The translations under genes and the position numbers were made by a program. Positions 4,624-61,995 of a stretch of DNA of 64,000 bases are shown here, in pieces. This DNA comes from Dehalococcoidia bacterium (GTDB lineage Bacteria; Chloroflexota; Dehalococcoidia; Bin125). The DNA lies in NCBI GenBank assembly GCA_965247775.1, contig OZ252031.1:1692855-1756854 (forward strand), written 5' to 3'. The notes beneath the pieces are model-generated. The model was not told where the DNA came from and made no database searches. It saw only the letters and a list, made by a program, of their open reading frames with translations. Each line of letters begins with the position of its first letter. The first letter of the stretch is position 1.

Positions 4624-4866
4624 TCAGCCGCGGCCGACGAAGTGGGCGCTGGTACCGGCGTGCAGCTCGGCGGCTTCCCTAACGGTCTCGGAGAGGGTGG
4701 GGTGGGCGTGGATGCTGTGGCGCAGGTCCTCGGCGCGGGCACCCATCTCGACGGCGCGGAGGAGGTCCGGGAGGGAGGTGATCCAGTCCTCAGCCTCGAG
4801 CCAGTCGCCGGCGGAGAGGCCGTCGGGAGGGAAGGAGACGGGAACGGGGGTGCGGTCCGTACTCAT
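4624..4866 (-). pseudogene. orphan C-terminal dimerisation-domain fragment (80 aa) of a pyridine nucleotide-disulfide oxidoreductase (lpd/merA/gor-like)
   Basis: [32 protein letters not shown] matches the C-terminal interface motif of E3-family flavoenzymes. There is no upstream FAD/NAD domain. Its stop lies 2 nt from the next gene's start. Confidence 0.5.
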
Positions 4867-5094
4867 GCGCCTCCCGCAACCACCCTCACCCTGCCCCGCG
4901 GCCAGCCCTCAGCAGCCGTGCCGTTCCCGATGGCGTCCCGTTCAGCGTAGGGCACAGGCCGCGGGGCCGCCGAGAGACGCCGTCGACAGATGGGGCCATG
5001 CTTTATGGGGACAGGGCTCTATGGGGACAGGCCGAGGCCGGCTGTCCTAGCCTGGCGGCGCGGACCCACAGGGCGGGCGCCGAAAGGAGCGGCG

Positions 5095-5349
5095 ATGACG
5101 GAGCAGGAGCCGGCGGGGACGGGGGCGGACGAAGGGGCGGAGGGCGAAGAGCGCGAGCCGGAGATCCGGGCGTCGGACCGGTTCACGATCAACGGCAAGC
5201 CGCTGCCGTTCGGAGAGTTCGTGTCGGCGACGATGTCGCAGATGCCGTGGCGCGAGCCGACGGCGCTGGAGCCGCAGCCAGAGCCCGAGCCGTGGGACGT
5301 GATCTGGCTGTCGCGGGTTCCGGCGGGAGAGGAGCCAGCGGAGGCGTGA
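5095..5349 (+). CDS. hypothetical acidic small protein
   Basis: ATG preceded by the strong RBS aaaggagc; high GC3; 84 aa. Confidence 0.5.
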   Translation: MTEQEPAGTGADEGAEGEEREPEIRASDRFTINGKPLPFGEFVSATMSQMPWREPTALEPQPEPEPWDVIWLSRVPAGEEPAEA

Positions 5350-5407
5350 GGGGCGGGGGTGGGCGCGTGCCGGCGGCGGGGGCGGGGCCGCAGGGAGTGC
5401 TGCGGGG

Positions 5408-6025
5408 ATGATGCCCTCGACGACGCTGGGCTGGATCGTGATCAGCCTGGCGACGCTGGTGATCGCCGTGGGGGGCTTCGTGGCGGTGATGGTGATCCTG
5501 GTGTTCGTGGGTGGGCCGACTTCGACGGCGGTGTGCGGGGAGCGGGCGCTGGCGGTGGGATCGGGGGCGGGGCTGCGCTTCGACGGTCGCTGGGACGGCT
5601 TCGACGCGTTCCTGGACACGGGAGTGCCCGAGAGCCTGGACCTGGAAGAGGCGGAGGTGACGGAGCGGGCGCGCAGCTTCCTCACCGTGGAGAACGATGT
5701 GGACGAGATCCGGGACGTGGTGGTGTGCTTCTTGGGCCCGGAGGAGGCGGGCGGGCTGGGACGGGGTGAGCTTCGGGGGAAGGTGGCGATCCCGGTCCTG
5801 CCGGACGTGAGCGGGCGGGTGCGGGGCCGGCTGGACCTGAGTGGGCCGCAGCCGGCTCTGGAGGTGACGGACATCGATCTGGGAAGCGTGCCGGGCTTCC
5901 TGACGTCGAGGGCGGGGGGGGCGATCGAGGAGGCGATCAATGCGGCGCTGGCGGACGTGGCGTTGCAGCACCACTACACGATCGACTTCTTCGAGGGGTT
6001 CGTGCGGATCAATGGGCGGCCCTAG
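5408..6025 (+). CDS. hypothetical membrane-anchored protein
   Basis: N-terminal TM helix (WIVISLATLVIAVGGFVAVMVILVF) and coding-like composition. The overlapping long minus-strand ORFs are Pro/Arg shadow ORFs. Confidence 0.55.
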   Translation: MMPSTTLGWIVISLATLVIAVGGFVAVMVILVFVGGPTSTAVCGERALAVGSGAGLRFDGRWDGFDAFLDTGVPESLDLEEAEVTERARSFLTVENDVDEIRDVVVCFLGPEEAGGLGRGELRGKVAIPVLPDVSGRVRGRLDLSGPQPALEVTDIDLGSVPGFLTSRAGGAIEEAINAALADVALQHHYTIDFFEGFVRINGRP

Positions 6026-6112
6026 CGGGGACGGGCCCGGGGGGCGACGGGGCGGACCCGGGCGCGGCATCGGAAGGGTCCGGCGGGGAGGGTAGCGCGA
6101 TTTGCTCGCGTT

Positions 6113-7228
6113 ATGGATACTCGGCGACGGGGGGGCGCTGCGCGGATGCAGATGACGCTGCTGGCCGGATTGGCGTTGCTGGCGGGGACGCTGGCCCTGG
6201 CCCTGGCCTTTGGGGGCGCCACGGCGCCGGCGGATGGCGGCGCACGTGCGGGAGCCGCGTTGGCGGCGGCGGAAGCGGACGTGGAACGCGCTGCGGGTGG
6301 GGCGGGGGCGGCGGACGACGCTGCGGGGAACGAGGAGGCCGCCGCCCAGGGGGCCGTCGGGGCCGAGAGGGCCGGGCCGGAACGTCCGGCGGCGGAGGCG
6401 GAAGGGCAGGGCCGCGCGGCGGCGGCGGCGGCGGCGGAGCCGCGACGGCTGATCGTGGTCGACGCGGGGCATGGGGGAGCGAGCAGGGGGGCGGTGCGGC
6501 ACGGAGTGATCGAGCGGGACTCGAACCTGGAGATGGCGTTGCGGGTGGAGGGGCTGCTGGTGGCGGCGGGGTTCGATGTGATCCTGACGCGGCGGGGCGA
6601 GGAGCGGGTGGCGGCGGTCCCGAACCTCCCGGAGGTGCCCGAGTCGTTGGTGAACCGGCGGGACTTGCAGGCACGGGTGGACCTGGCGAACGCGGTGGGG
6701 GCGGATCTGTTCATCGCGATCCACTCGAATGGGGCGTCGGATCCGGCGGCGAGCGGGATTGAGGTCTGGTTCGACGGGCGGCGGGCGTTCGCGGCGAGGA
6801 ACGAGAGGCTGGCGCAGGCGCTGCAGGGGAGGTTGGTGTCGGCGGTGGAGCGGGAAACGGGCTGGCGGCCATGGGACCGAGGGGTACGGGAGGACAGTTG
6901 CTGGAACATCTCGGAGCGGAACGGGGAGTGCTCGCCGCTGTTCGTGCTGGGGCCGGCGCAGGAGGTGAAGCGATCGGATGTCGTGCGGCTGGGGATCGAT
7001 CCGGGAGCGCTGGGGTTCGCGCCGGGGCAGGAGCGGCTGATCACGCGGCCGACGCGGATGCCGGCGGCGCTGGTGGAGCTGCTGTTCATCACGCATCCGT
7101 TCGAGGCAGCGAAGCTGAAGGACGAGGCGACGCGGCAGGCGCTGGCGCTGGGGATCGTGGAGGGGATCGTGCAGTACTTCAGGGAGCAGACGCTGGTGAC
7201 GGAGGCGCCGGCCGCCGGGGCAGGGTAG
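6113..7228 (+). CDS. N-acetylmuramoyl-L-alanine amidase (Amidase_3 family) with Ala-rich linker
   Basis: Catalytic domain with LIVVDAGHGG ... ADLFIAIHSNG. Signal-like MQMTLLAGLALLAG; an alternative start at ATG 6146 is possible. Confidence 0.75.
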   Translation: MDTRRRGGAARMQMTLLAGLALLAGTLALALAFGGATAPADGGARAGAALAAAEADVERAAGGAGAADDAAGNEEAAAQGAVGAERAGPERPAAEAEGQGRAAAAAAAEPRRLIVVDAGHGGASRGAVRHGVIERDSNLEMALRVEGLLVAAGFDVILTRRGEERVAAVPNLPEVPESLVNRRDLQARVDLANAVGADLFIAIHSNGASDPAASGIEVWFDGRRAFAARNERLAQALQGRLVSAVERETGWRPWDRGVREDSCWNISERNGECSPLFVLGPAQEVKRSDVVRLGIDPGALGFAPGQERLITRPTRMPAALVELLFITHPFEAAKLKDEATRQALALGIVEGIVQYFREQTLVTEAPAAGAG

Positions 7229-7229
7229 G

Positions 7230-7470
7230 CCGCGCGGGGCGGGCGGCGGGGTTGACTAGGCCGCGCGGGGGGCGCGGCGGGGTTGACTGGGCCGCGCGGG
7301 GGGCGCGGCGGGGTTGACTGGGCCGCGCGGGGGGCGCGGCGGGGTTGACTGGGCCGCGCGGGGGGCGCGGCGGGGTTGACTGGGCCGCGCGGGGGGCGCG
7401 GCGGGGTTGACTGGGCCGCGCGGGGGGCGCGGCGGGGTTGACTGGGCCGCGCGGGGGGCGCGGCGGGGGG
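7230..7470. repeat. 31-bp perfect tandem direct repeat, about 7.7 copies; each unit ccgcgcggggggcgcggcggggttgactggg contains TTGACT
   Basis: Read directly from the sequence. The unit length is not a multiple of 3 and the array is intergenic between the amidase stop (7228) and the amidohydrolase start (7509). Confidence 0.9.
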
Positions 7471-7508: not shown

Positions 7509-8666
7509 ATGCCGCGCGATCACCTCTATTACTCCTGCGACTCGCACTTCGTGGAGGCGGCGGAAGTGTTCCAGGGGCACGAGGAGCGCTTCGGGGAGCG
7601 GGCGCCACAGATCGTGCAGGACCCGCCCGGGCGGGAGGGGATCTACGTGGTCTTCCCGCGGCAGGAGGTCCTGCTGCCGGTGGGGCGCTTCGGGATCGCG
7701 GGGCGGCGGCTGGACGACCCGGAAACGCGGGAGCGGATCAAGCACGGCTGGACGTACCTGAACCCCGGCGTGCAGGATCCGGTGGCGCGGCTGCGGGAGC
7801 AGGCGGAGGACGGGATCGTGGGGGAGGTGATGTACCCGAGCATCAACATGTTCACCTTCTCCTACCCGGACCGGGAGGTGACGCAGGCGGTGTTCCGGCG
7901 GCACAACGACTGGGTAGCGGACTACCAGAGCCATTCGCCGGAGCGGCTGATCGGGGCGGCGTGCATCCCGCTGCCGGACATGGAGGAGTCGTTGCGGGAG
8001 TTCGATCGGTGCCTGAAGAAGGGGCTGCGGGCGTTCGCGCTGCCCTGTACGGCGCCGCCGGATCTGCCCTTCAGCGATCCGCACTACGAGCCGTTCTGGT
8101 CGGCGGCGGAGGAGGCGGGGGTCCCGCTGTCGATGCACATCTTCTGCGGGTCGGAGTGGGGGATGAGCCTGCCGAAGCACTGGAACTCGATCTCGTCGTA
8201 CGCGCTGAGCCTGTCGGCGATGGCGTGGACGGCGGAGACGCTGATCACGGGGGGCGTGTTCGCGCGGCATCCGGGGCTGCGGGTGGTGTTCGCGGAGTGG
8301 GAGACGGGCTGGATCGCGCACTGGCTGGATCGTCTGGACCACGCGGCGTACCGGACGCCGAAGGCGGCGTCGGGGGAGATGGAGGGGAAGCCGTCGGAGT
8401 ATTTCGCGCGGCACTGCTGGGTAACGTTCGAGGACGACGCGATCGGGATCCGGACGCGCGACCTGATCGGGGTGGAGCGGATGGCGTGGGGCAACGACTA
8501 CCCGCACCACGATTCGATCTGGCCTCACAGCATGGCGACGCTGGATCGGATCATGGAGGGGGTGCCGGAGGCGGAGGAGCGGGCGATGACGTGGGGCAAC
8601 GTGGCGGGGCTGTACGGGCTGGACGAGTCGGAGCTGCGGGCGGCCTGCAGGGAGGTGTCGGGGTAG
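7509..8666 (+). CDS. amidohydrolase-2 family metal-dependent hydrolase (ACMSD-like)
   Basis: ATG at 7509 is preceded by aagggggac. TIM-barrel amidohydrolase_2-like sequence with His/Asp metal ligands (HH...D). Confidence 0.7.
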   Translation: MPRDHLYYSCDSHFVEAAEVFQGHEERFGERAPQIVQDPPGREGIYVVFPRQEVLLPVGRFGIAGRRLDDPETRERIKHGWTYLNPGVQDPVARLREQAEDGIVGEVMYPSINMFTFSYPDREVTQAVFRRHNDWVADYQSHSPERLIGAACIPLPDMEESLREFDRCLKKGLRAFALPCTAPPDLPFSDPHYEPFWSAAEEAGVPLSMHIFCGSEWGMSLPKHWNSISSYALSLSAMAWTAETLITGGVFARHPGLRVVFAEWETGWIAHWLDRLDHAAYRTPKAASGEMEGKPSEYFARHCWVTFEDDAIGIRTRDLIGVERMAWGNDYPHHDSIWPHSMATLDRIMEGVPEAEERAMTWGNVAGLYGLDESELRAACREVSG

Positions 8667-8760
8667 GGGGTGGCGGGGTAGGGGGTGGCGGGGAAGGGGA
8701 AGGCGGGGAAGGGGAAAGCGAAGCCGGGGGGCGGGGCCGATAGGATGGGGTCCGGACGAT
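8667..8760. repeat. G-rich purine low-complexity tract (imperfect 15-17-bp repeats; G-quadruplex-prone)
   Basis: gggtagggggtggcgg x2 then ggaaggggaaggcgg x2. Lies immediately upstream of the RBS of the NHL selenoprotein gene. Confidence 0.6.
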
Positions 8761-8770
8761 AGGAGCCCGC

Positions 8771-10258
8771 ATGACGAACGCCGCGCTGGGGGAGACGCCG
8801 GCCCCGCCGTTGCCGCAGGACCAGGACTGGATCAACACGTCGCGGCCGCTGACGCTGGAGGATGTGCGCGGGCGGCTGGTGATCCTGCACTTGTGGACGT
8901 ACGCCTGAATCAACTGCCTGCACGTGCTTCCGCAGTTGCGGAAGCTGGAGCGTGGTTATGCGGATGCGCTCACGGTGATCTCGGTGCACTCGCCGAAGTT
9001 CCCGACGGAGCGGGAGACGGCGCATCTGCGGCAGGCGGTGCTGCGGCATCGGATCGAGCATCCGGTGCTGAACGATCGGGACTTCCACTACTGGCAGCAG
9101 CTAGGGGCGCGGGCCTGGCCGACGCTGTACTTCGTGGATCCGCTGGGCAACGTGATCGGGCGGCACGAGGGGGAGATCCGGGCGGAGGCGGTGGCGCCGC
9201 TGCTGGAGTCGTGGCTGGGGGAGTACCGGTCGGCGGGGCTGCTGGGGGGGACGACGCTGCCCCTGGAGCGGGCGACGGGGGTGGCGAGTCCGCTGTCGTT
9301 CCCGGGCAAGGTGGCGTACGACGAGGCGAGCGGGCGGCTGTTCGTCGCGGACAGCAACCATGACCGCGTGGTCGTTGGGCGGCTGGACGGGTCGGTGGAG
9401 CAGGTGGTGGGGAGCGGGGAGGCGGGGCTGGCGGACGGTGCGCCGGGGTCGGCCCGGTTCCGGCAGCCGCAGGGGATGACGGTATGGCGGGACGAGGCGG
9501 GGGAGGCGCTGTTCGTGGCGGATACGGAGAACCACGCGATCCGGCGGGTGGACCTGGAGAGCTGGGAGACGACGACGGTGGCGGGGACGGGGGAGCAGTG
9601 CGGGACGGCGCCGCAGCGGCGGGCGGCGCGGGGGGCGGCGCTGAACTCGCCCTGGGACGTCGTGGGGCGGGAGGGGCGGCTGTACGTGGCGATGGCGGGC
9701 TTCCACCAGTTGTGGGAGTTGGACCTGGAAGCGGGGATGATCGGGCCGTGGGCGGGGTCGATGCGAGAGGGGATCGTGGATGGGACGCGGGCGTCGGCGG
9801 AGCTGGCGCAGCCGAGCGGGCTGTCGCTGGGGGGGGAGGGGCTGGCGTTCGCGGATAGCGAGTCGAACGCGGTGCGGCTGGCGGGGGTCGGGGTTGGGGG
9901 CCGGGTCGAGACGGCGATCGGGGAGGGGTTGTTCGAGTTCGGGGACGCGGACGGGGGGCAGGGGGTGGCGCGGCTGCAGCATCCGCTGGACGTGGCCTGG
10001 CTGGGCGAGGAGCTGTATGTGGCGGACACGTTCAATCACAAGGTCAAGCAGGTCTTTCCGCGCACGCAGCAGGTGCGGACGGTGTGTGGGGGGCTGGGGG
10101 AGGCGGACGGGTCGTTGGGGGAGGCGCGGTTCAACGAGCCGGGGGGGATCTGCGCGGGGCCGGGGCGGAGTTTGGTCGTGGCGGACACGAATAACCACGC
10201 GGTGCGGGTGGTGGACTTGGCGGGGGGGAGGGTGCGGACGGTGGAACTCCGCCCATAA
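8771..10258 (+). CDS. selenoprotein candidate: thioredoxin-fold plus NHL-repeat protein (NHLRC2-like) with in-frame TGA (Sec46) in a U-x-x-C redox motif
   Basis: ATG 8771 follows aggag. Continuous frame 8771..10258 except TGA at 8906-8908. Context LVILHLWTYA-U-INCLHVLPQL aligns with the NHLRC2 FTYCCINC motif. NHL repeats follow. Stem-loop 8926-8945 lies downstream of the TGA. Confidence 0.7.
8926..8945 (+). promoter_or_regulatory. candidate bacterial SECIS hairpin (gcttccgc-AGTT-gcggaagc), about 20 nt downstream of UGA
   Basis: Perfect 8-bp stem with an AGUU loop, seen in the sequence. Confidence 0.45.
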
Positions 10259-27126: not shown

Positions 27127-29922
27127 CTACCAGTACTGGCGGCGTTTGCCGCGGCGACGCTTGCCGCCGCCGTGGCCCCACTCCTGGGGGTCGGCGGCGC
27201 GGTCGAGGGCGACGGCGCAGACCTTGTATTCGGGGATGCGGGATTGCGGGTCGTAGGCGTTGTTGGTGAGCCAGTTGGCGGCGGAGTCCTTGAGGCGGAG
27301 GAAGGGCACGAAGACGGAGCCGGGGGCGACGTCCTCGGTGAGGAAGGCGACGCCCTCGAGGCGACCGCGGCGTGAGCGGAGGAGGACGGTTTCGCCGTCG
27401 GCGATCTCGGCGCGGGCGGCGTCGGCGGGGTGGACGGCGACGCGGAGTTCCGGGAAGGAGTCGGCGAGGCCCTGGACGCGACTGGTGAGGGCGCCGCCGT
27501 GCCAGTGGTAGAGGACACGGCCGGTGTTGAGGATGAGGGGATAGGCGTCGTCGGGCTGCTCCTCGGCGGGGGCGGTCTGACGCACGGGGACGAACTTGGC
27601 CTTGCCGCGAGGGAAGTCCCGGGCGTACATGCGCTCGGTGCCGGGATGCGCAGGGTCGGGGCAGGGCCACTGGATGCCGCCTTCGCGGTCGAGGCGATCA
27701 TGGGAGAGGCCGGCCATGATGGGGGTGAGCGCGGCGAGTTCGTCGAAGATCGCGGCGGCGGAGGGGTGGTCGAAGCCGCGCAGTTCGACGTTGCGCCGCC
27801 GCGCGACGCGGGCGGCGAGGTCCTGCACGATCTCCCAGTCGGGCCGGGCCTCGCCGGGAGGGTCGAGGAGCTTGCGGAGGCGCTGGACGCGGCGCTCGCT
27901 GTTGGTGACGGTGCCCTCCTTCTCAGCGAAGGAGGCGGCGGGGAGGACGACGTCGGCGATGTCGGCAGTCTCCTGCATGAAGATGTCCTGCACCACGAGG
28001 AAGTCGAGCGTGGCGAGCATCTCGGTGGCGTGCGCGAGGTTGGGGTCGGTGAGCGCGGGGTTCTCGCCGACGACGTACATGCAGCGGATGCTGCCGTCGC
28101 CCATGGCCTCGACCATGTCGGTGGCGCGCAGCCCCTCCTTGTCTGACAAGCGGAGGGCGGCCACGTCGCCGCCCCAGACGGACTGGAAGCGGGCGAGGTT
28201 GTCGGGGGTGTAGCGCTGGTAGCCGGGGAGGGCGTCGGGAACGCAGCCGGCGTCGCCGGCGCCCTGGACGTTGTTCTGGCCGCGCAGGGGGGAGACGCCG
28301 TTGCCGGCGCGGCCGACCTGGCCGGTGAGCAGGGCGAGGTTGAGGAGGGCAGTGGCGTTGGCGGTGCCGTTGGTGTGCTGGGTGACGCCCATGCCCCAGA
28401 GGAGGCAGGAGCCATCGCGGCCGGGGGGGCCGCCGTGCCCGGCGGGGCGGGCGTAGAGGCGGGCGGCGCGGCAGAGGAGATCGGCCGGGACGCCGGAGAG
28501 TTCCTGCACATGTTCGGGGGTGTAGTGGTCGAGGGCGGCGCGCCAGGCGTCGAAGTCCTCGGTGCGGTCGCGGATGAATGCTTCGTCGTGGAGGTTCTCG
28601 TCGAGGATGAGCTTGGCCATGCCGTTGAGGACGGCGACGTCGGTGCCGGGGTACTGGCGCAGCCAGAGGTCGGTGTGATCGCAGAGTTCGATGCGCTTGG
28701 GATTGAGGATGATCATGCGGACGCCGTGATCGTTGACGGCGCGGCGGATGCGGCTGGCGATGACGGGGTGGTTGGAGGAGGTGTCGGAGCCGACGACCAT
28801 GACGCAGCCGGCGTCCTCGTAGTCGGTGTAGGAGTTGGAGGTGGCGCCGCTGCCGAGCTGGTTGAGCATGGCATCGACGGAGGGGGCGTGGCAGAGGCTA
28901 GTGCAGTGGTCGATGTTGTTGGTGCCCATGAGGGCGCGGACGAGCTTCTGGATCAGGTAGTTGTCCTCGTTGGTGGCTTTGGCGCTGGCGAAGGCGCCGA
29001 AGTGGCCGCGGTGCTGGACGAACTTGTCGGCGACGAGGTCGAGAGCCTCGTCCCAGGTGGCGGGCTGGAGGGCGCCAGCGCGGCGGATGAGGGGCGTCGT
29101 GAGGCGGTCGGGGTGGTTGACGAACGAGACGCCGAAGCGGCCCTTGACGCAGAGGAGGCCGAGGGAGGAGCGGTTGGCGGGGTCGTCATCGACGTGGGTG
29201 ACGCGGCCGGCGTCGTCGGCGGAGAGCTGGATGCCGCAGCCGACGCCGCAGTAGGGGCAGACCGTGGAGACGGTGCGGGCGGGGGCGGGGGGCTGCTTGG
29301 AGCGGATGGCGCCGGTGGGACAGGCGGCGACGCACTGGCCGCACGAGGTGCAGATGGACTCCCCGAGGGGTTCGTCGGCGAAGGGGGCGATGCGGGTGGC
29401 GGCGGCGGCGCCGGCGATGCCGATCGCGCCGATGTGCTGGAGGTCCTGGCAGGCGGAGGTGCAGCGACCGCAGAGGATGCACTCGGTGGCGTCGAAGAGG
29501 TAGAAGGGGTTGCTCTCGTCGCGGTGATCGTTGCGGCGGGGGGTCCAGCGGCGGGGGTCGGCGACGTGGGAGACGGCAGCGCGGCCGAGTTCGGAGCCGG
29601 GCTGGGGATCGGATTCGGGGTCGCGCATGGCGAGGGTGAGTTCGAGGACACCGCGGCGGACATCGCGCGCTTGCTCGGATTGGGTGTGCACGACCATGCC
29701 ATCATTCGCGGGAAGGGAGCAGGAGGCGGGGAGGCCGCGGACACCGTCGATCTCGACGAGGCAGGTGCGGCAGGCGCCGAGGGCGGGGCCGTCCGGGTCC
29801 TTGCAGAGGTGGGGGAAGCCGCCGTCGCGGGCGAGGACAGCGTCGAGGACGGTGGCGCCGGGGGGGACCTGAATGGGTTCGCCATCGACGGTGAGGGAGA
29901 GGGGAGCGCTCGTGGGAGTCAT
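27127..29922 (-). CDS. fdsA: NAD-dependent formate dehydrogenase catalytic (alpha) subunit, molybdopterin/Fe-S, Cys-type
   Basis: N-terminal 2Fe-2S and 4Fe-4S Cys clusters. Active-site region NNIDHCTSLCHAPSV has Cys, not Sec. 931 aa. ATGA overlap with the upstream gene. Confidence 0.9.
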   Translation of the reverse strand: MTPTSAPLSLTVDGEPIQVPPGATVLDAVLARDGGFPHLCKDPDGPALGACRTCLVEIDGVRGLPASCSLPANDGMVVHTQSEQARDVRRGVLELTLAMRDPESDPQPGSELGRAAVSHVADPRRWTPRRNDHRDESNPFYLFDATECILCGRCTSACQDLQHIGAIGIAGAAAATRIAPFADEPLGESICTSCGQCVAACPTGAIRSKQPPAPARTVSTVCPYCGVGCGIQLSADDAGRVTHVDDDPANRSSLGLLCVKGRFGVSFVNHPDRLTTPLIRRAGALQPATWDEALDLVADKFVQHRGHFGAFASAKATNEDNYLIQKLVRALMGTNNIDHCTSLCHAPSVDAMLNQLGSGATSNSYTDYEDAGCVMVVGSDTSSNHPVIASRIRRAVNDHGVRMIILNPKRIELCDHTDLWLRQYPGTDVAVLNGMAKLILDENLHDEAFIRDRTEDFDAWRAALDHYTPEHVQELSGVPADLLCRAARLYARPAGHGGPPGRDGSCLLWGMGVTQHTNGTANATALLNLALLTGQVGRAGNGVSPLRGQNNVQGAGDAGCVPDALPGYQRYTPDNLARFQSVWGGDVAALRLSDKEGLRATDMVEAMGDGSIRCMYVVGENPALTDPNLAHATEMLATLDFLVVQDIFMQETADIADVVLPAASFAEKEGTVTNSERRVQRLRKLLDPPGEARPDWEIVQDLAARVARRRNVELRGFDHPSAAAIFDELAALTPIMAGLSHDRLDREGGIQWPCPDPAHPGTERMYARDFPRGKAKFVPVRQTAPAEEQPDDAYPLILNTGRVLYHWHGGALTSRVQGLADSFPELRVAVHPADAARAEIADGETVLLRSRRGRLEGVAFLTEDVAPGSVFVPFLRLKDSAANWLTNNAYDPQSRIPEYKVCAVALDRAADPQEWGHGGGKRRRGKRRQYW

Positions 29923-31925
29923 GCGGGGACCTCCGGCGTGAGGGCGGAGTCGAAGTGGGCGAGGGCGCTGGTGACGGGCGCGACGGCCATTTGGCCCAAG
30001 CCGCAGAGCGAGGCGGAGCGGAGGAGGGGGATGAGGGCGTCGATGTCGGCGCGGGCGGCCTCACGATCGGCCTGGCCGGCGCTGCGGAGGCGGCGGACGG
30101 CGGCGGCGAGACGCTCGCCGCCCTCGCGGCAGGGGGTGCACTTGCCGCAGGACTCGCGGGCGTTGTAGTCGGCCTCGATCTGGAGGATCTCGCCGACGGG
30201 GGTCGCGGCGTCGAAGGCGACGATGCCGCCGGAGCCGAGAACGGCGCCGGCCTCGTCGAGGGCGCCGGGGCCGATGGGGAGGTCGAGCTTCGTGGCGGGG
30301 AGGAGCCCGCCGGAGGGGCCGCCGGCGACGACGCCGCCGAGGGCGGCCGGATCGGCAACGCCGCCGATGTGGAGGATGGCGGCGACGGTGGCGCCCATCG
30401 GGACCTCGATCAAACCGGGGCGGGGGACCGCGCCGCTGAGGCTGATCAACTTGGTGCCGGGGGCATCGTCGGTGCCGGCGTCGCGGAACCAGTCGACGCC
30501 GAAGCGGAAGAGGTCGGGCAGGTTGCAGAGGGTTTCGACGTTGCTGATCACGGTGGGGCGGCCCCAGAGGCCGCGCTCGGTGGGGAAGGGAGGGCGCAGG
30601 CGAGGGACGGCGCGGCGGCCCTCGATGCTTTCGAGGAGGACGGTTTCCTCGCCGCAGACGTAGCCGCCGGCGCCGCGACGGATCTCGACGCGGAGGCCCG
30701 CGGTGTCACTTCCCTTATGTGCGCGGGCGTTCTGCGCGCCGGGGGCGCCGGCGCGCAGAACGCCCGCTTCCTCCGCCTGGGCGAGGGCGGTGGTGAGGCG
30801 CTGATGGGAGAGCGCCGCTTGCCCGTTGACGTAGATGAAGGCGAGGTCCGCGCCGACGGCGTGGGCGGCGATGCAGACGCCCTCGATCAGGCGATGGGGG
30901 TCGGCCTCCATGAGGGCGCGGTCCTTGAAGACGCCGGGCTCCCCCTCCTCGGCGTTGACGACGAGGCTCGGGGTGCCGTTGCGGGTGGCAGCGGCGCTGG
31001 CGGCGCGCCACTTGAGGTGGACGGGGAAGTAGGCGCCGCCACGGCCGCGCAGGCCGGAGGCTTCTACCGCGTCGACGATCTCCTCGGGGGTGATGGAGAG
31101 CGCTGTCTTGAGGCCGACGTAGGCGCCGGCGGCGCGGGCCTCGTCGAGGGAGGCGGGGTCGATGTGGCCGGCCCGGGCGAGGAGGCGGCGGGTCTGGGGC
31201 GCGAGAAAGTCGTGCAGGGCGGGGTCCTCGGGGGCGCCGGCGAGGAGGGCGCGCGCGACGCCGGCGGCGGCGGCGGCCGTGACGGGGACGGCGGCGGGAC
31301 GGGTGGGGCCGTCCGGGGGGAGGGCGAGGACGGGGGCGGCCCAGGCAGCGCCATCGCCGCCGGTCTCGACGACGTCGATCTCGGGCAAGGCGTCGCGCAG
31401 GGCGTCGAGGACGTGGCCCGCGCCGACGGCGCGGGCCATGGCACCGCCGCGGAGGTTGAGCCGGGGGCGGGGGCCGGGGGGCGACGGCACGAGGGCGGGG
31501 GCCGGGTCGGCGGCGAAGCCCGCGGCGGCGCGGCCCCGCTCTGGTGTATCGGCTCTGCCGAAGAGCGGGCCGTCGTCCTCGACGACGGGAGCGACGGCGC
31601 AGGCGAAGCAACACTCGCGTTCCTCCACGCGGCGGCCGGCGTCGCGGAGGGAGGCGGCCAGGGCGTCGCTGCCAGCCAAGCGGCAGCTCAGACCGCGGCA
31701 GACAGCGATCGCGCCGGGCTCGGGGGGGAGGGTGCGGAACTCGGTGTAGGAGGTCGCGACGGCGTAGAGGTCGGAGTTGGGGATGTGGAGCCAGTGCCCG
31801 ATCTGCTCCAGGCCGGCGGGGTCAAGGTAGCCCGCGATCTCGTGGAGCAGGTGGAGGGCGGGGAGCGCTTGGGCGCGCTCCCGGGGGAGAGAAACCAGCC
31901 GATCGTCGAGGCCGTCGACCGTCAT
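29919..31925 (-). CDS. formate dehydrogenase beta/gamma fusion (NuoE-like 2Fe-2S plus NuoF-like FMN/NAD-binding 4Fe-4S subunit)
   Basis: NuoF motifs GRGGAYFP ... GGYVCGEETVLLESIEG ... ESCGKCTPCR. Start ATG 31925 or TTG 31982. Confidence 0.75.
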   Translation of the reverse strand: MTVDGLDDRLVSLPRERAQALPALHLLHEIAGYLDPAGLEQIGHWLHIPNSDLYAVATSYTEFRTLPPEPGAIAVCRGLSCRLAGSDALAASLRDAGRRVEERECCFACAVAPVVEDDGPLFGRADTPERGRAAAGFAADPAPALVPSPPGPRPRLNLRGGAMARAVGAGHVLDALRDALPEIDVVETGGDGAAWAAPVLALPPDGPTRPAAVPVTAAAAAGVARALLAGAPEDPALHDFLAPQTRRLLARAGHIDPASLDEARAAGAYVGLKTALSITPEEIVDAVEASGLRGRGGAYFPVHLKWRAASAAATRNGTPSLVVNAEEGEPGVFKDRALMEADPHRLIEGVCIAAHAVGADLAFIYVNGQAALSHQRLTTALAQAEEAGVLRAGAPGAQNARAHKGSDTAGLRVEIRRGAGGYVCGEETVLLESIEGRRAVPRLRPPFPTERGLWGRPTVISNVETLCNLPDLFRFGVDWFRDAGTDDAPGTKLISLSGAVPRPGLIEVPMGATVAAILHIGGVADPAALGGVVAGGPSGGLLPATKLDLPIGPGALDEAGAVLGSGGIVAFDAATPVGEILQIEADYNARESCGKCTPCREGGERLAAAVRRLRSAGQADREAARADIDALIPLLRSASLCGLGQMAVAPVTSALAHFDSALTPEVPA

Positions 31926-32003
31926 TGGACGGATTATCGCACGGCGGCGGCGTGGCCGGCGCCTGGGCGGGCAGCGGGTCAACCAGCGTCCACGAAGGCG
32001 TGG

Positions 32004-32789
32004 CTACCAGGGGATCGGCAGGAAGCGCTTCCAGCCGCGGGGTTTGATCTCCTTGATGCGCCAGGGCGCCTTCTGGGTGGAGAAGGTGGGAGCGATGTCG
32101 GCGCCGTCGGCGGCGACGAGTTCGGCCAGGGCCTTATCGATGCGGTCGGCGTCGGCCCAGGTGGCCTTGTAGTGGACGCGGCCGTCCTTGCCGACGACGT
32201 AGACCATGTTGGGGAGGTCGCCGAGCTGGTGGTGGACCTCCTGATCGATACCGTCAACGAGGACGCCGACGGACATGGACTTCTGCCGCACCAGTTCCTG
32301 GGCGTACTGCATTTTCTGCTCGTACGTCTTGTGCTCGTGGTAGGCGGTGAAGATCGTTTCGTCGGGGTGGGGTTCCCGCACGTAGAGGTTGAGGACGGCG
32401 ACGTCGTGGCCGGCGTACTTGTCCTTGAGCTGCTCGAAGAGCGGCACCTGCCGCCGGTAGGGCGGTCACGTCATGGCGCCGGTCATCAGCACGAAATGCT
32501 TCTGGCCCTTGAAGGTGGCGGTGTTGACGCGCTCGCCGGTCGTGGTTTCGAGGTCGATGGCGGGGAATTCCTCGCCGGGAGGGAAGGTGGTCTTGGATTT
32601 CTGGTAGAGCTTCTGGATGTAGCCCTCGCCGCCGAGGCCGAGGTGGCCGAGCATGATCTTGAAGACGCGGACGCGGTCGATGTAGTACATGCTCCAGAAG
32701 CCCATCCAGGGCCCGGGGGGCTTGTCGATGGCTTCGTTGTGGTCCTGTAGGTAGGAGCGCGCGGCCGGCTCCCCTTCGGTGGTGGTCAT
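32004..32789 (-). CDS. selenoprotein candidate: iodothyronine-deiodinase-like thioredoxin-fold protein, in-frame TGA (Sec108)
   Basis: Track ORFs 32466..32789 and 32004..32447 are in the same frame and separated only by TGA at 32466-32468. Context KHFVLMTGAMT-U-PPYRRQVPLFEQL ... LYVREPHPDE aligns with the deiodinase FGSATUPPF ... YIDEAHPSDGW. ATG 32789 follows agggggac. Stem-loop right after the TGA. Confidence 0.7.
32440..32455 (-). promoter_or_regulatory. candidate bacterial SECIS hairpin (ggcggc-AGGU-gccgcu) about 13 nt downstream of UGA
   Basis: 6-bp stem including one G-U pair; loop carries GGU. Confidence 0.45.
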
Positions 32790-39296: not shown

Positions 39297-42282
<2,986 letters not shown>

Positions 42283-42354
42283 TGCTTTGCGGTTTCCGCA
42301 GTGTGGGGTTGATGATGGTCAGGCTGGTCGCTCGTGTAGGCTGTTCGGTGCCGG

Positions 42355-42429
<75 letters not shown>

Positions 42430-53849: not shown

Positions 53850-54249
53850 GGGCAGGGGTCGGTCAGCGAGGGAGCGATGCGCTGGCCAAGATCATCAAGG
53901 AGCCAATAACGGTGGAGGCGCCCGGGCGGCCGGAGCTGGGGCTGCTGCACCATCGGTTGCCCTTCAGCCTGCGCTCGTTGTGGGTCGTGCAGTACTGGGA
54001 GTCGTTCGAGAAGCTGGAGGCCTACGCCCGCGCGAACGATTCCGCCCACCTGCCCGCCTGACGGGACTCCAACCAGCGGGTGGGCAGCAGCGGCGACGTG
54101 GGCCTCTGGCACGAGACGTACCGGACCATGCCGGCGTACGGGTTGGGCAAGGCGCTGGGCCTGGTCCCCGCGACCGGGCCACGGCAGACAGCGCCCGGCC
54201 GGATGGGGGTGCCGGAGCCGGAGCAGGCAGCCCCGCCGTCGTGAGCGGA

Positions 54250-61500: not shown

Positions 61501-61995
61501 ATGGCGGACGAAGCGACAGCGGGACAGCCGGCCGTGGACGAGGTGACGGACGCGGACCGCATGGAGGCGTCGGAGAAGAACGTCGAAAAGATGTGGAAGT
61601 TCGCGCGGAAGTTCGCGGACAAGAGCGGCTCCTACCTGCATCCGCAAGAGGAGATCACGGAGTTTCTGGTGATCGGGCTGGCGAAGCACGTCGACGATCT
61701 GGGCAAGCCGCTCTGCCCCTGCAATTTCTATGAGGACAAAGAGAAAGAGGTGGCGACATCCAACTTCTGGATCTGCCCCTGCGAGGAGATGCAGAAGTGG
61801 AAGTACTGCCATTGACTGCTCTTCTGCGATGCGGAAGGTCTTCCCATCACCGAACACCTGCCGGCCGAACATGAAGGCCGCGAGATCTACGGCGTGATCC
61901 CGGACCCGCAGCCGGAGAAGGGCCGAGCGATCGGCCGGCTGGAGAAGAAGCAGGGGCGACGCATTGAGAAGGGGCGGCGGGCGCCCAAGGACTGA
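61501..61995 (+). CDS. selenoprotein candidate: ferredoxin:thioredoxin reductase catalytic-subunit-like protein with in-frame TGA (Sec105) in the CHC motif (CPC-x16-CPC-x8-CHU)
   Basis: The track ORF 61501..61815 ends at TGA. The frame continues to the TGA at 61993-61995 with FtrC-like sequence (U-LLFCDAEGLPIT versus CHC-MLFLTPDNDFAG). ATG follows gggaagga. A stem-loop lies after the TGA. Confidence 0.7.
61819..61839 (+). promoter_or_regulatory. candidate bacterial SECIS hairpin (cttctgc-GAT-gcggaag) 6-8 nt downstream of UGA
   Basis: 7-bp stem with one G-U pair. Shares the 3' arm GCGGAAG with the NHL gene hairpin. Confidence 0.4.

Follow-up and report, generated by a model that had tools for sequence, protein, structure and literature searches.

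Within 64,000 nt of Dehalococcoidia DNA with a G+C content of 71% (OZ252031.1:1,692,855-1,756,854, forward strand; this whole stretch is called the window below, and all coordinates refer to it), a 45-codon open reading frame (ORF) runs into a 444-codon ORF encoding NHL repeats in the same frame, with a single TGA codon as the only interruption. The question raised by this locus is whether that TGA closes a small gene, marks a damaged one or is translated. Our analysis indicates that positions 8771-10258 are very probably one selenoprotein gene, coding for a thioredoxin-NHL (Trx-NHL) protein in which codon 46, UGA, would be read as selenocysteine (Sec). Reading frame, alignment column, conservation and RNA-level constraint are observations, set out in the following sections; Sec insertion and the enzymology discussed at the end are what we infer.

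A UGA codon at the redox motif of a thioredoxin-NHL protein

The elements of the locus, all on the forward strand, are the following:

8761-8765, +: Shine-Dalgarno-like AGGAG, with a 5-nt spacer to the ATG at 8771, from direct reading of the sequence
8771-10258, +: proposed full-length coding sequence in a single frame, 495 codons plus TAA, with UGA46 as Sec; predicted product of ~53 kDa
8795-9220, +: thioredoxin-like domain of the Thioredoxin_8/TlpA-DipZ type, residues ~9-150, from Pfam and from PDB matches to DipZ, YkuV and TlpA
8906-8908, +: in-frame UGA, proposed Sec46, at the N-terminal, attacking position of a U-I-N-C redox motif
8915-8917, +: TGC codon of Cys49, the proposed resolving Cys of the UxxC motif, which aligns with C434, the last Cys of CCINC in SOQ1
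8926-8945, +: hairpin GCUUCCGC-AGUU-GCGGAAGC resembling a selenocysteine insertion sequence (SECIS), with its core at 8927-8944 and the apical loop AGUU at 8934-8937
9284-10231, +: NHL-repeat beta-propeller, residues ~172-487 (Pfam NHL, E = 8e-23)

The initial annotation had described the short ORF as preceded by a good ribosome-binding site and continuous with the NHL ORF except for the TGA, and this is borne out by the sequence: 45 codons lead from the ATG at 8771 to the TGA at 8906-8908, and the frame then stays free of stops until the TAA at 10256-10258. The 444-aa ORF that begins with GTG (8924-10258) is the tail of the 495-aa read-through product. Around the TGA the residues are L-W-T-Y-A-(TGA)-I-N-C.

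In the N-terminal part of the product, Pfam places Thioredoxin_8 (PF13905; 33.1 bits, cut-off 27) at residues 34-128 and AhpC-TSA at 25-128. This part also contains a cis-Pro loop (W116-P117-T118), in which W116-P117, together with A115, is invariant among orthologues. The best PDB match is the lumenal Trx-like plus NHL region of Arabidopsis SOQ1 (7djj, E = 1e-105, residues 9-487), and human NHLRC2 (6gc1) is matched over residues 10-486 with E = 1e-96. Residues 172-487 align over their full length with the propeller of SOQ1 (7djm, E = 5e-63) and that of NHLRC2 (6g7w, E = 8e-59), structures from which we take it that the propeller would be six-bladed. The protein stops eight residues after the last aligned propeller residue, and the C-terminal beta-stranded domain with a second Cys pair (C1006/C1012 in SOQ1, C689/C696 in NHLRC2) is absent; it is thus an orthologue of the Trx-NHL core and not of the full eukaryotic proteins. 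By homology, it belongs to the NHLRC2/SOQ1 family as a bacterial form with two domains. Inspection of its N-terminus by eye gave no sign of a signal peptide or membrane helix.

When SOQ1 is aligned with this protein, FWTYCCINCMHVLP falls over LWTYA-[UGA]-INCLHVLP, and the UGA46 column coincides with the second Cys of CCINC (C431), that is, the N-terminal Cys of the CxxC pair; it corresponds likewise to the CCINC Cys of human NHLRC2. The earlier proposal that the TGA occupies the active-site Cys of the NHLRC2/thioredoxin-NHL family is therefore upheld by the alignment with SOQ1, and also by that with the Cys-form orthologues described below. The motif becomes A-U-I-N-C, with the first Cys replaced by Ala, the second by UGA and I-N-C kept, and the CxxC core would be retained only if UGA46 is Sec.

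Conservation of the UGA and of the hairpin downstream of it

Homologues were sought in a protein search against 5.8 billion proteins; DNA was then fetched for two truncated matches, followed by a scan of 185,579 species genomes. The best 81 database matches (57-93% identity) all have 440-462 aa, cover ~89-90% of the query and lack the N-terminus, while matches with up to 52% identity, from Acidobacteria, Planctomycetes and others, cover 98-100%. Homologues from other lineages with 491-498 aa and a Cys at position 46 cover 98-99%, and many others are longer, with 546-748 aa. The 444-aa ORF of the window itself had no exact match on record. In relatives, gene callers place a separate ORF of 43-45 aa upstream of the truncated NHL ORF. 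These truncated matches and separate ORFs confirm what had been anticipated in the initial annotation, namely that pipelines would report a truncated protein or two ORFs.

At the DNA level, all 58 orthologues fetched from Dehalococcoidia/Chloroflexota, whose proteins are 57-76% identical to that of the window, have TGA in the context [FL]WTYA-(TGA)-INC, so that the loss of the neighbouring first Cys to Ala, noted at the outset for the window, holds across the Dehalococcoidia clade. Each of the 58 also has an upstream start and ~45 conserved codons before the TGA. In Ktedonobacteria both states of the codon were found: five metagenome-assembled genomes (MAGs; L061, L062, L069, L071 and L074) read WT(F/L)C-(TGA)-INC, equivalent to C-U-I-N-C, and 13 others read WT(F/L)CCINC with TGC or TGT. 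The same column is occupied by TGC or TGT, in WTYGC(I/V)NC, in one MAG of Acidimicrobiia and in seven Gammaproteobacteria, among them Rheinheimera and Gallaecimonas. Alignment with Cys-containing homologues, which had been suggested as a check, thus confirmed the column in Ktedonobacteria, Acidimicrobiia, Gammaproteobacteria and SOQ1. In a neighbour-joining tree (drawn without support values) the Sec forms of Dehalococcoidia make up one clade and the Sec and Cys forms of Ktedonobacteria are intermixed, which implies several exchanges between Sec and Cys and suggests repeated switching inside the latter group.

Among the 56 distinct orthologous sequences, codons -30 to +45 relative to the TGA are conserved as protein on both flanks with synonymous variation; Gly-12 and Arg-11, for example, are each written with four different codons. 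None of the 56 distinct Sec-form sequences departs from Cys at position 49, whether written TGT or TGC. Of the outcomes that the initial annotation had regarded as arguments against recoding, two concern the homologues. The first was a lack of conservation of the 45 N-terminal codons, and the opposite was found. The second was termination of the homologues of close relatives at the same place, and here the reasoning has to be turned round: the TGA is present in the 58 Dehalococcoidia orthologues, and a shared TGA together with conserved upstream codons and the hairpin is the pattern expected of a fixed Sec codon.

These data bear first on the possibility of a pseudogene or of a sequencing or assembly error, in which an active-site Cys codon, TGC or TGT, would have mutated to TGA in a decaying gene. 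TGA is one substitution away from either codon, and the window does hold one likely genuine pseudogene TGA, in a DUF4188-like ORF at 54059. Against this, the same TGA is present in 63 orthologues, from 58 independent Dehalococcoidia assemblies and five Ktedonobacteria, and both flanks are under purifying selection and free of other stops or frameshifts; copies of a single contaminant are excluded by the 57-76% identity of the orthologues to the window protein. We consider the chance that the gene is damaged or misread to be close to negligible.

A second possibility is that there are two genes, one for a 45-residue peptide ending at the TGA and another for a 444-residue NHL protein starting at GTG 8924, in which case the hairpin could serve translational coupling, RNA stability or attenuation. 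Such an arrangement would match the annotation given by gene callers, and many orthologues have a GTG or ATG soon after the TGA. It would, however, cut the thioredoxin fold at the CxxC motif, leaving the first strand and the active-site residue apart from the resolving Cys, in a region where the Cys-form orthologues and the structures of SOQ1 and NHLRC2 are continuous. Moreover, the I-N-C-L-H-V codons between the TGA and the supposed start, which would then go untranslated, are conserved as in-frame protein, and the downstream start is not constant among orthologues (M at L51, M49 or M55). Separate genes are in our opinion very improbable, and a coupling, stability or attenuation role of the hairpin is improbable to the same degree.

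The other element considered in support of a single selenoprotein gene is the hairpin, which had been proposed as a bacterial SECIS of eight perfect pairs with an AGUU loop, about 20 nt downstream of the TGA. The DNA of the window, GCTTCCGC-AGTT-GCGGAAGC, does form eight perfect pairs beginning 17 nt past the TGA, and the structure is conserved; what did not hold is its full length, as in relatives only the inner seven pairs are conserved (CUUCCGC-AGUU-GCGGAAG). The AGUU loop, which begins 25 nt after the UGA, is invariant. The 55 nt from the UGA fold with -22.9 kcal/mol (z = -3.16), a value equalled in one of 200 shuffles. With a G+C content of 71%, comparable perfect hairpins follow ~9 of the 1141 TGA triplets in the window (~0.8%), so that the hairpin by itself is weak evidence. 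It was for this background that the hairpin was rejected as sufficient evidence for Sec, and the case is carried by the comparative data.

In the 56 distinct Dehalococcoidia sequences, codons +8 to +12 (CCG CAG TTG CGG AAG) are invariant and codon +7 is CTT in 47, while elsewhere, on both sides of the TGA, synonymous sites vary freely. CTT and TTG account for 2.3% and 7.4% of the Leu codons in the genes of the window, and the joint probability of the codon choice in the hairpin is 1.7e-4. In an alignment of 47 distinct Sec-form sequences, 92% of the helix is paired, and two pairs change in a compensatory manner, one from U-A to C-G or G-C and the other from C-G to G-C; variants seen are CUCCCGC/GCGGGAG and CUGCCGC/GCGGCGG and, in Ktedonobacteria, CUCGCGC/GCGCGAG. 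The covariation score is 0.122 against a shuffle mean of 0.059, and was exceeded by none of 500 shuffles and by no slid control.

In Ktedonobacteria, a Pro-to-Ala change (CCG to GCG) is offset by a synonymous change from CGG to CGC on the opposite strand, and every Sec form there carries the co-varied hairpin CUCGCGC-AGUU-GCGCGAG or a close variant. The sequence GCGCAGTTGCG is present in all five Sec forms versus one of the 13 Cys forms (Fisher p = 7e-4). For the hairpin, Sec forms average -12.5 kcal/mol and Cys forms -3.6 kcal/mol; in the Cys forms it is variable and much weaker. These comparisons show that the hairpin is under selection at the RNA level.

Probable selenocysteine decoding in the source genome

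Several observations weigh against the reading of UGA46 as Sec. The evidence for it lies at the level of sequence and RNA, and the statistical tests given above overstate independence because the compared sequences are phylogenetically related. Part of the stem coincides with the codons of a conserved peptide, L-P-Q-L-R-K, and a hairpin weaker than that of the Sec forms can also arise in some Cys-form genes; L063, one of these, reaches -10.4 kcal/mol, a fairly good fold that comes from the partial self-complementarity of the A-Q-L-R peptide. Positions 8880-8990 match no Rfam family, even at E <= 10, and the hairpin is missing the bulged U of the Escherichia coli fdhF SECIS. Finally, selA, selB, selD and tRNA-Sec were not found within the 64-kb window or in 83 fetched loci (~1.6 Mb). 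Neither ARAGORN, applied to the window and to all the fetched loci, nor Rfam, applied to the window, gave a tRNA-Sec; for the proteins, Pfam detected no SelA, SelB or SelD among ~55 ORFs of the window, and tblastn with the E. coli sequences against the window and the 83 loci returned unrelated GTPases only. A 92-nt 'tRNA-Glu(ctc)' called by ARAGORN at 31549-31640 (+) was discarded: it lies inside a NuoF-like gene (29922-31982, -) and has no Rfam support, so that it is most probably spurious and no tRNA-Sec.

The lack of Sec machinery in the window and in the 83 loci is what favours a further alternative, in which UGA46 would be read through without Sec, by reassignment of the code to Trp or Gly, by a near-cognate tRNA or by insertion of Cys. 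Reassignment of UGA occurs in some uncultured bacteria. In the window, however, TGA ends 28 of the 57 called genes and is the commonest ordinary stop, from which it follows that the code is not reassigned, and the homologues have Cys, not Trp or Gly, in the UGA46 column. A conserved structured element 3' of the codon is in addition the signature of SelB-dependent recoding, and those in-frame TGAs of the window which relatives have kept occupy redox Cys positions in known selenoprotein families. We regard read-through without Sec as very unlikely, and Sec at UGA46 as the better account.

The in-frame TGAs just mentioned came from a scan of the window for such codons with coding signal on both sides, combined with Pfam annotation of its ORFs. 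Two genes were found besides the Trx-NHL gene:

32004-32789, -: deiodinase-like/redoxin gene (Pfam T4_deiodinase), with TGA at 32466-32468 in G-A-M-T-(TGA)-P-P-Y
61501-61995, +: FtrB-like gene, with TGA at 61813-61815 in C-H-(TGA)-L-L-F

Each of the seven database homologues of the deiodinase-like gene is cut short at this TGA, which two relatives, L086 (90% identical) and L087 (76%), have retained together with its flanks. A possible hairpin downstream of the TGA, GGCGGC-AGGU-GCCGCU, could be seen by eye, and the minimum free energy fold does not include it (z = -0.54). For the FtrB-like gene, the closest homologues (82-92% identity) are truncated at the TGA and those with 55-75% identity are full-length, presumably with Cys at that position; in one relative, the TGA forms of FtrB (L088) and of the Trx-NHL gene share a 3.4-Mb contig. 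From this conservation, the deiodinase-like gene is probably the second selenoprotein gene of the window and the FtrB-like gene probably the third. Both families are listed among bacterial selenoproteins (PMC9312934 Table 1; PMC2398784). Given two further genes of known selenoprotein families that have conserved in-frame TGAs, this genome seems able to decode Sec, and the indirect support for its machinery is strong. Three probable selenoprotein genes within 64 kb make the source organism look rich in selenoproteins, which is consistent with the 46-49 selenoprotein genes that BSepDB gives for Dehalococcoidia MAGs (PMC13326102).

A fourth candidate, the TGA at 54059-54061 (+) in the DUF4188-like ORF (~53900-54244; ...SAHLPA-(TGA)-RDSNQRVG...), was rejected. 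Its N-terminus looks truncated, and the TGA would fall where the putative family, DUF4188, has Trp (TGG). This ORF is probably a pseudogene and not a site of recoding.

With respect to the surroundings of the Trx-NHL gene, the neighbourhood is conserved: genes for an amidase and an amidohydrolase precede it and a cluster of Pho-type two-component and phosphate-transport genes follows it, and these neighbours offer no obvious redox partner. A G-rich repeat tract (8649-8729) of ~4 copies of 15-nt units such as AGGGGGTGGCGGGGA lies a short way upstream of the ribosome-binding site and could perhaps fold into G-quadruplexes on the coding strand. A near-perfect tandem array (7228-7468) of a 31-nt G+C-rich unit (GGCCGCGCGGGGGGCGCGGCGGGGTTGACTG), in 7.8 copies with 98% matches, is located where the amidase gene ends and runs across position 7407, at which the amidohydrolase ORF is listed as starting; the Pfam match within this ORF sets in ~430 nt further downstream.

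Two other regions of the window were also noted. A 23S rRNA gene (39297-42284) is followed by tRNA-Met (42355-42429), and Rfam at gathering thresholds detected neither 16S nor 5S rRNA in the 64-kb window, a pattern suggestive of unlinked rRNA genes. An 80-codon ORF (4624-4866, -) matches only the last ~30 residues of the dimerisation domain of pyridine-nucleotide-disulfide oxidoreductases, and the region upstream of it, ~5000-6100, has no recognisable coding frame; the ORF may be the remnant of a gene.

Proposed function and relation to known systems

Recoding at this locus would, by analogy, follow the established bacterial mechanism of Sec insertion. SelB·GTP·Sec-tRNASec would be bound to the hairpin at 8926-8945 when the ribosome reaches the UGA at 8906-8908, and SelB would bring Sec to codon 46 in place of release, giving a protein of 495 residues; without selenium or SelB, translation would halt after 45 residues. 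The product is predicted to be a cytoplasmic enzyme of ~53 kDa with a Sec46-I-N-Cys49 centre which, by analogy with the structure of NHLRC2 and the biochemistry of SOQ1, would face a cleft shared with the 'cup' of the propeller. Sec46, in the place of C431 of SOQ1, could attack an oxidised substrate held by the propeller, for instance a disulfide, and the resulting selenenylsulfide would then be resolved by Cys49.

A position at which Sec and Cys replace each other is considered a good indication of a catalytic redox Cys, so that this family offers an independent line of evolutionary evidence for the second Cys of CCINC as the attacking nucleophile. If the reading proposed here is true, a natural Cys-to-Sec exchange would mark that Cys (C431 in SOQ1 and its equivalent in NHLRC2) as the catalytic nucleophile, the Ala at the first position of the motif would show the first Cys of CCINC to be dispensable, and the result would bear on whether NHLRC2 is a redox enzyme. 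The Sec form would represent a natural, highly reactive variant of the NHLRC2/SOQ1 Trx-like domain. There is a practical side too: at least 81 database clusters are stored as truncated 'alkyl hydroperoxide reductase' or hypothetical proteins without an active site, with the 45 codons left as an orphan ORF, and recognition of the Sec codon would mend the annotation of the whole orthologous group.

As for novelty, we found no literature linking selenocysteine or selenoproteins to NHL, NHLRC2 or SOQ1, and prior inclusion in BSepDB is possible; 'NHL' is not mentioned in two reviews (PMC9312934, PMC2398784) nor in the BSepDB and deep-Sep papers. UxxC selenoproteins with a thioredoxin fold are a long-known class, which the Trx-NHL gene would join, and its Thioredoxin_8 domain and proposed UxxC motif fit the definition of the 'Thiol-disulfide isomerase-like protein' selenoprotein family (PMC9312934 Table 1). 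The families 'Trx-like 1', 'Thiol-disulfide isomerase-like' and 'Prx-like', defined at the level of domains, may already include fragments of this gene. With some hesitation, we suggest that the Sec orthologue of NHLRC2/SOQ1 could be a selenoprotein family not described as such, fixed across a high-G+C clade of Dehalococcoidia. By the same tentative reading, many members of that clade would apparently come from sponge metagenomes, and the Sec form would have been gained or lost repeatedly in Ktedonobacteria.

Several known systems resemble parts of this one. The hairpin, like the fdhF-type SECIS of E. coli, lies directly 3' of the UGA within the coding sequence, and differs from it in having no bulged U and in matching no Rfam model; its small loop, a G in the first two loop bases followed by U, and the start of that loop 25 nt after the UGA would fit the bSECISearch consensus, in which this distance is 16-37 nt. 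The nearest stand-alone thioredoxin relatives are DipZ of Mycobacterium tuberculosis (2hyx, E = 4e-18), whose motif is S-C-I-N-C (PMC6107167), and the TlpA/ResA types, which are membrane-anchored or extracytoplasmic and have neither an NHL propeller nor Sec. Similar in the redox centre are the bacterial UxxC selenoproteins 'Trx-like 1', 'Thiol-disulfide isomerase-like protein (Thioredoxin_8)' and 'Prx-like thiol:disulfide oxidoreductase (AhpC-TSA)' (PMC2398784, PMC9312934), which likewise have Sec as the N-terminal residue of CxxC, share the Pfam domains of the Trx-NHL protein and have a SECIS hairpin directly after the UGA; they are set apart by their descriptions, made at the level of single domains with no mention of an NHL fusion or of an orthologous relation to NHLRC2/SOQ1.

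The Trx-NHL architecture is shared with the two eukaryotic proteins. NHLRC2 has a Trx8-type domain with a conserved cis-Pro and a six-bladed NHL propeller, and helix alpha1 carries its CCINC motif (residues 89-93) at the N-terminal end, inside a cleft that faces the cup of the propeller (PMC6107167). It differs from the Trx-NHL protein in having Cys instead of Sec and an additional C-terminal beta-stranded domain; this protein, mutated in FINCA disease, was inactive in an insulin-reduction assay (PMC6107167). In SOQ1, too, a Trx-like domain, a linker and an NHL beta-propeller of the same kind are present, with Cys in place of Sec and the first Cys of CCINC kept; this protein has in addition a HAD domain in the stroma, a membrane helix and, at its C-terminus, a domain bearing a second Cys pair. 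Its C431-C434 pair is redox-active (Em, -274 mV), needed for function and passes electrons on (10.1101/2024.11.01.621559). The C-terminal domain receives electrons and has a reported methionine-sulfoxide reductase activity, and a disulfide-reductase activity of the SOQ1 domain of Trx-like type has been reported in a recent preprint.

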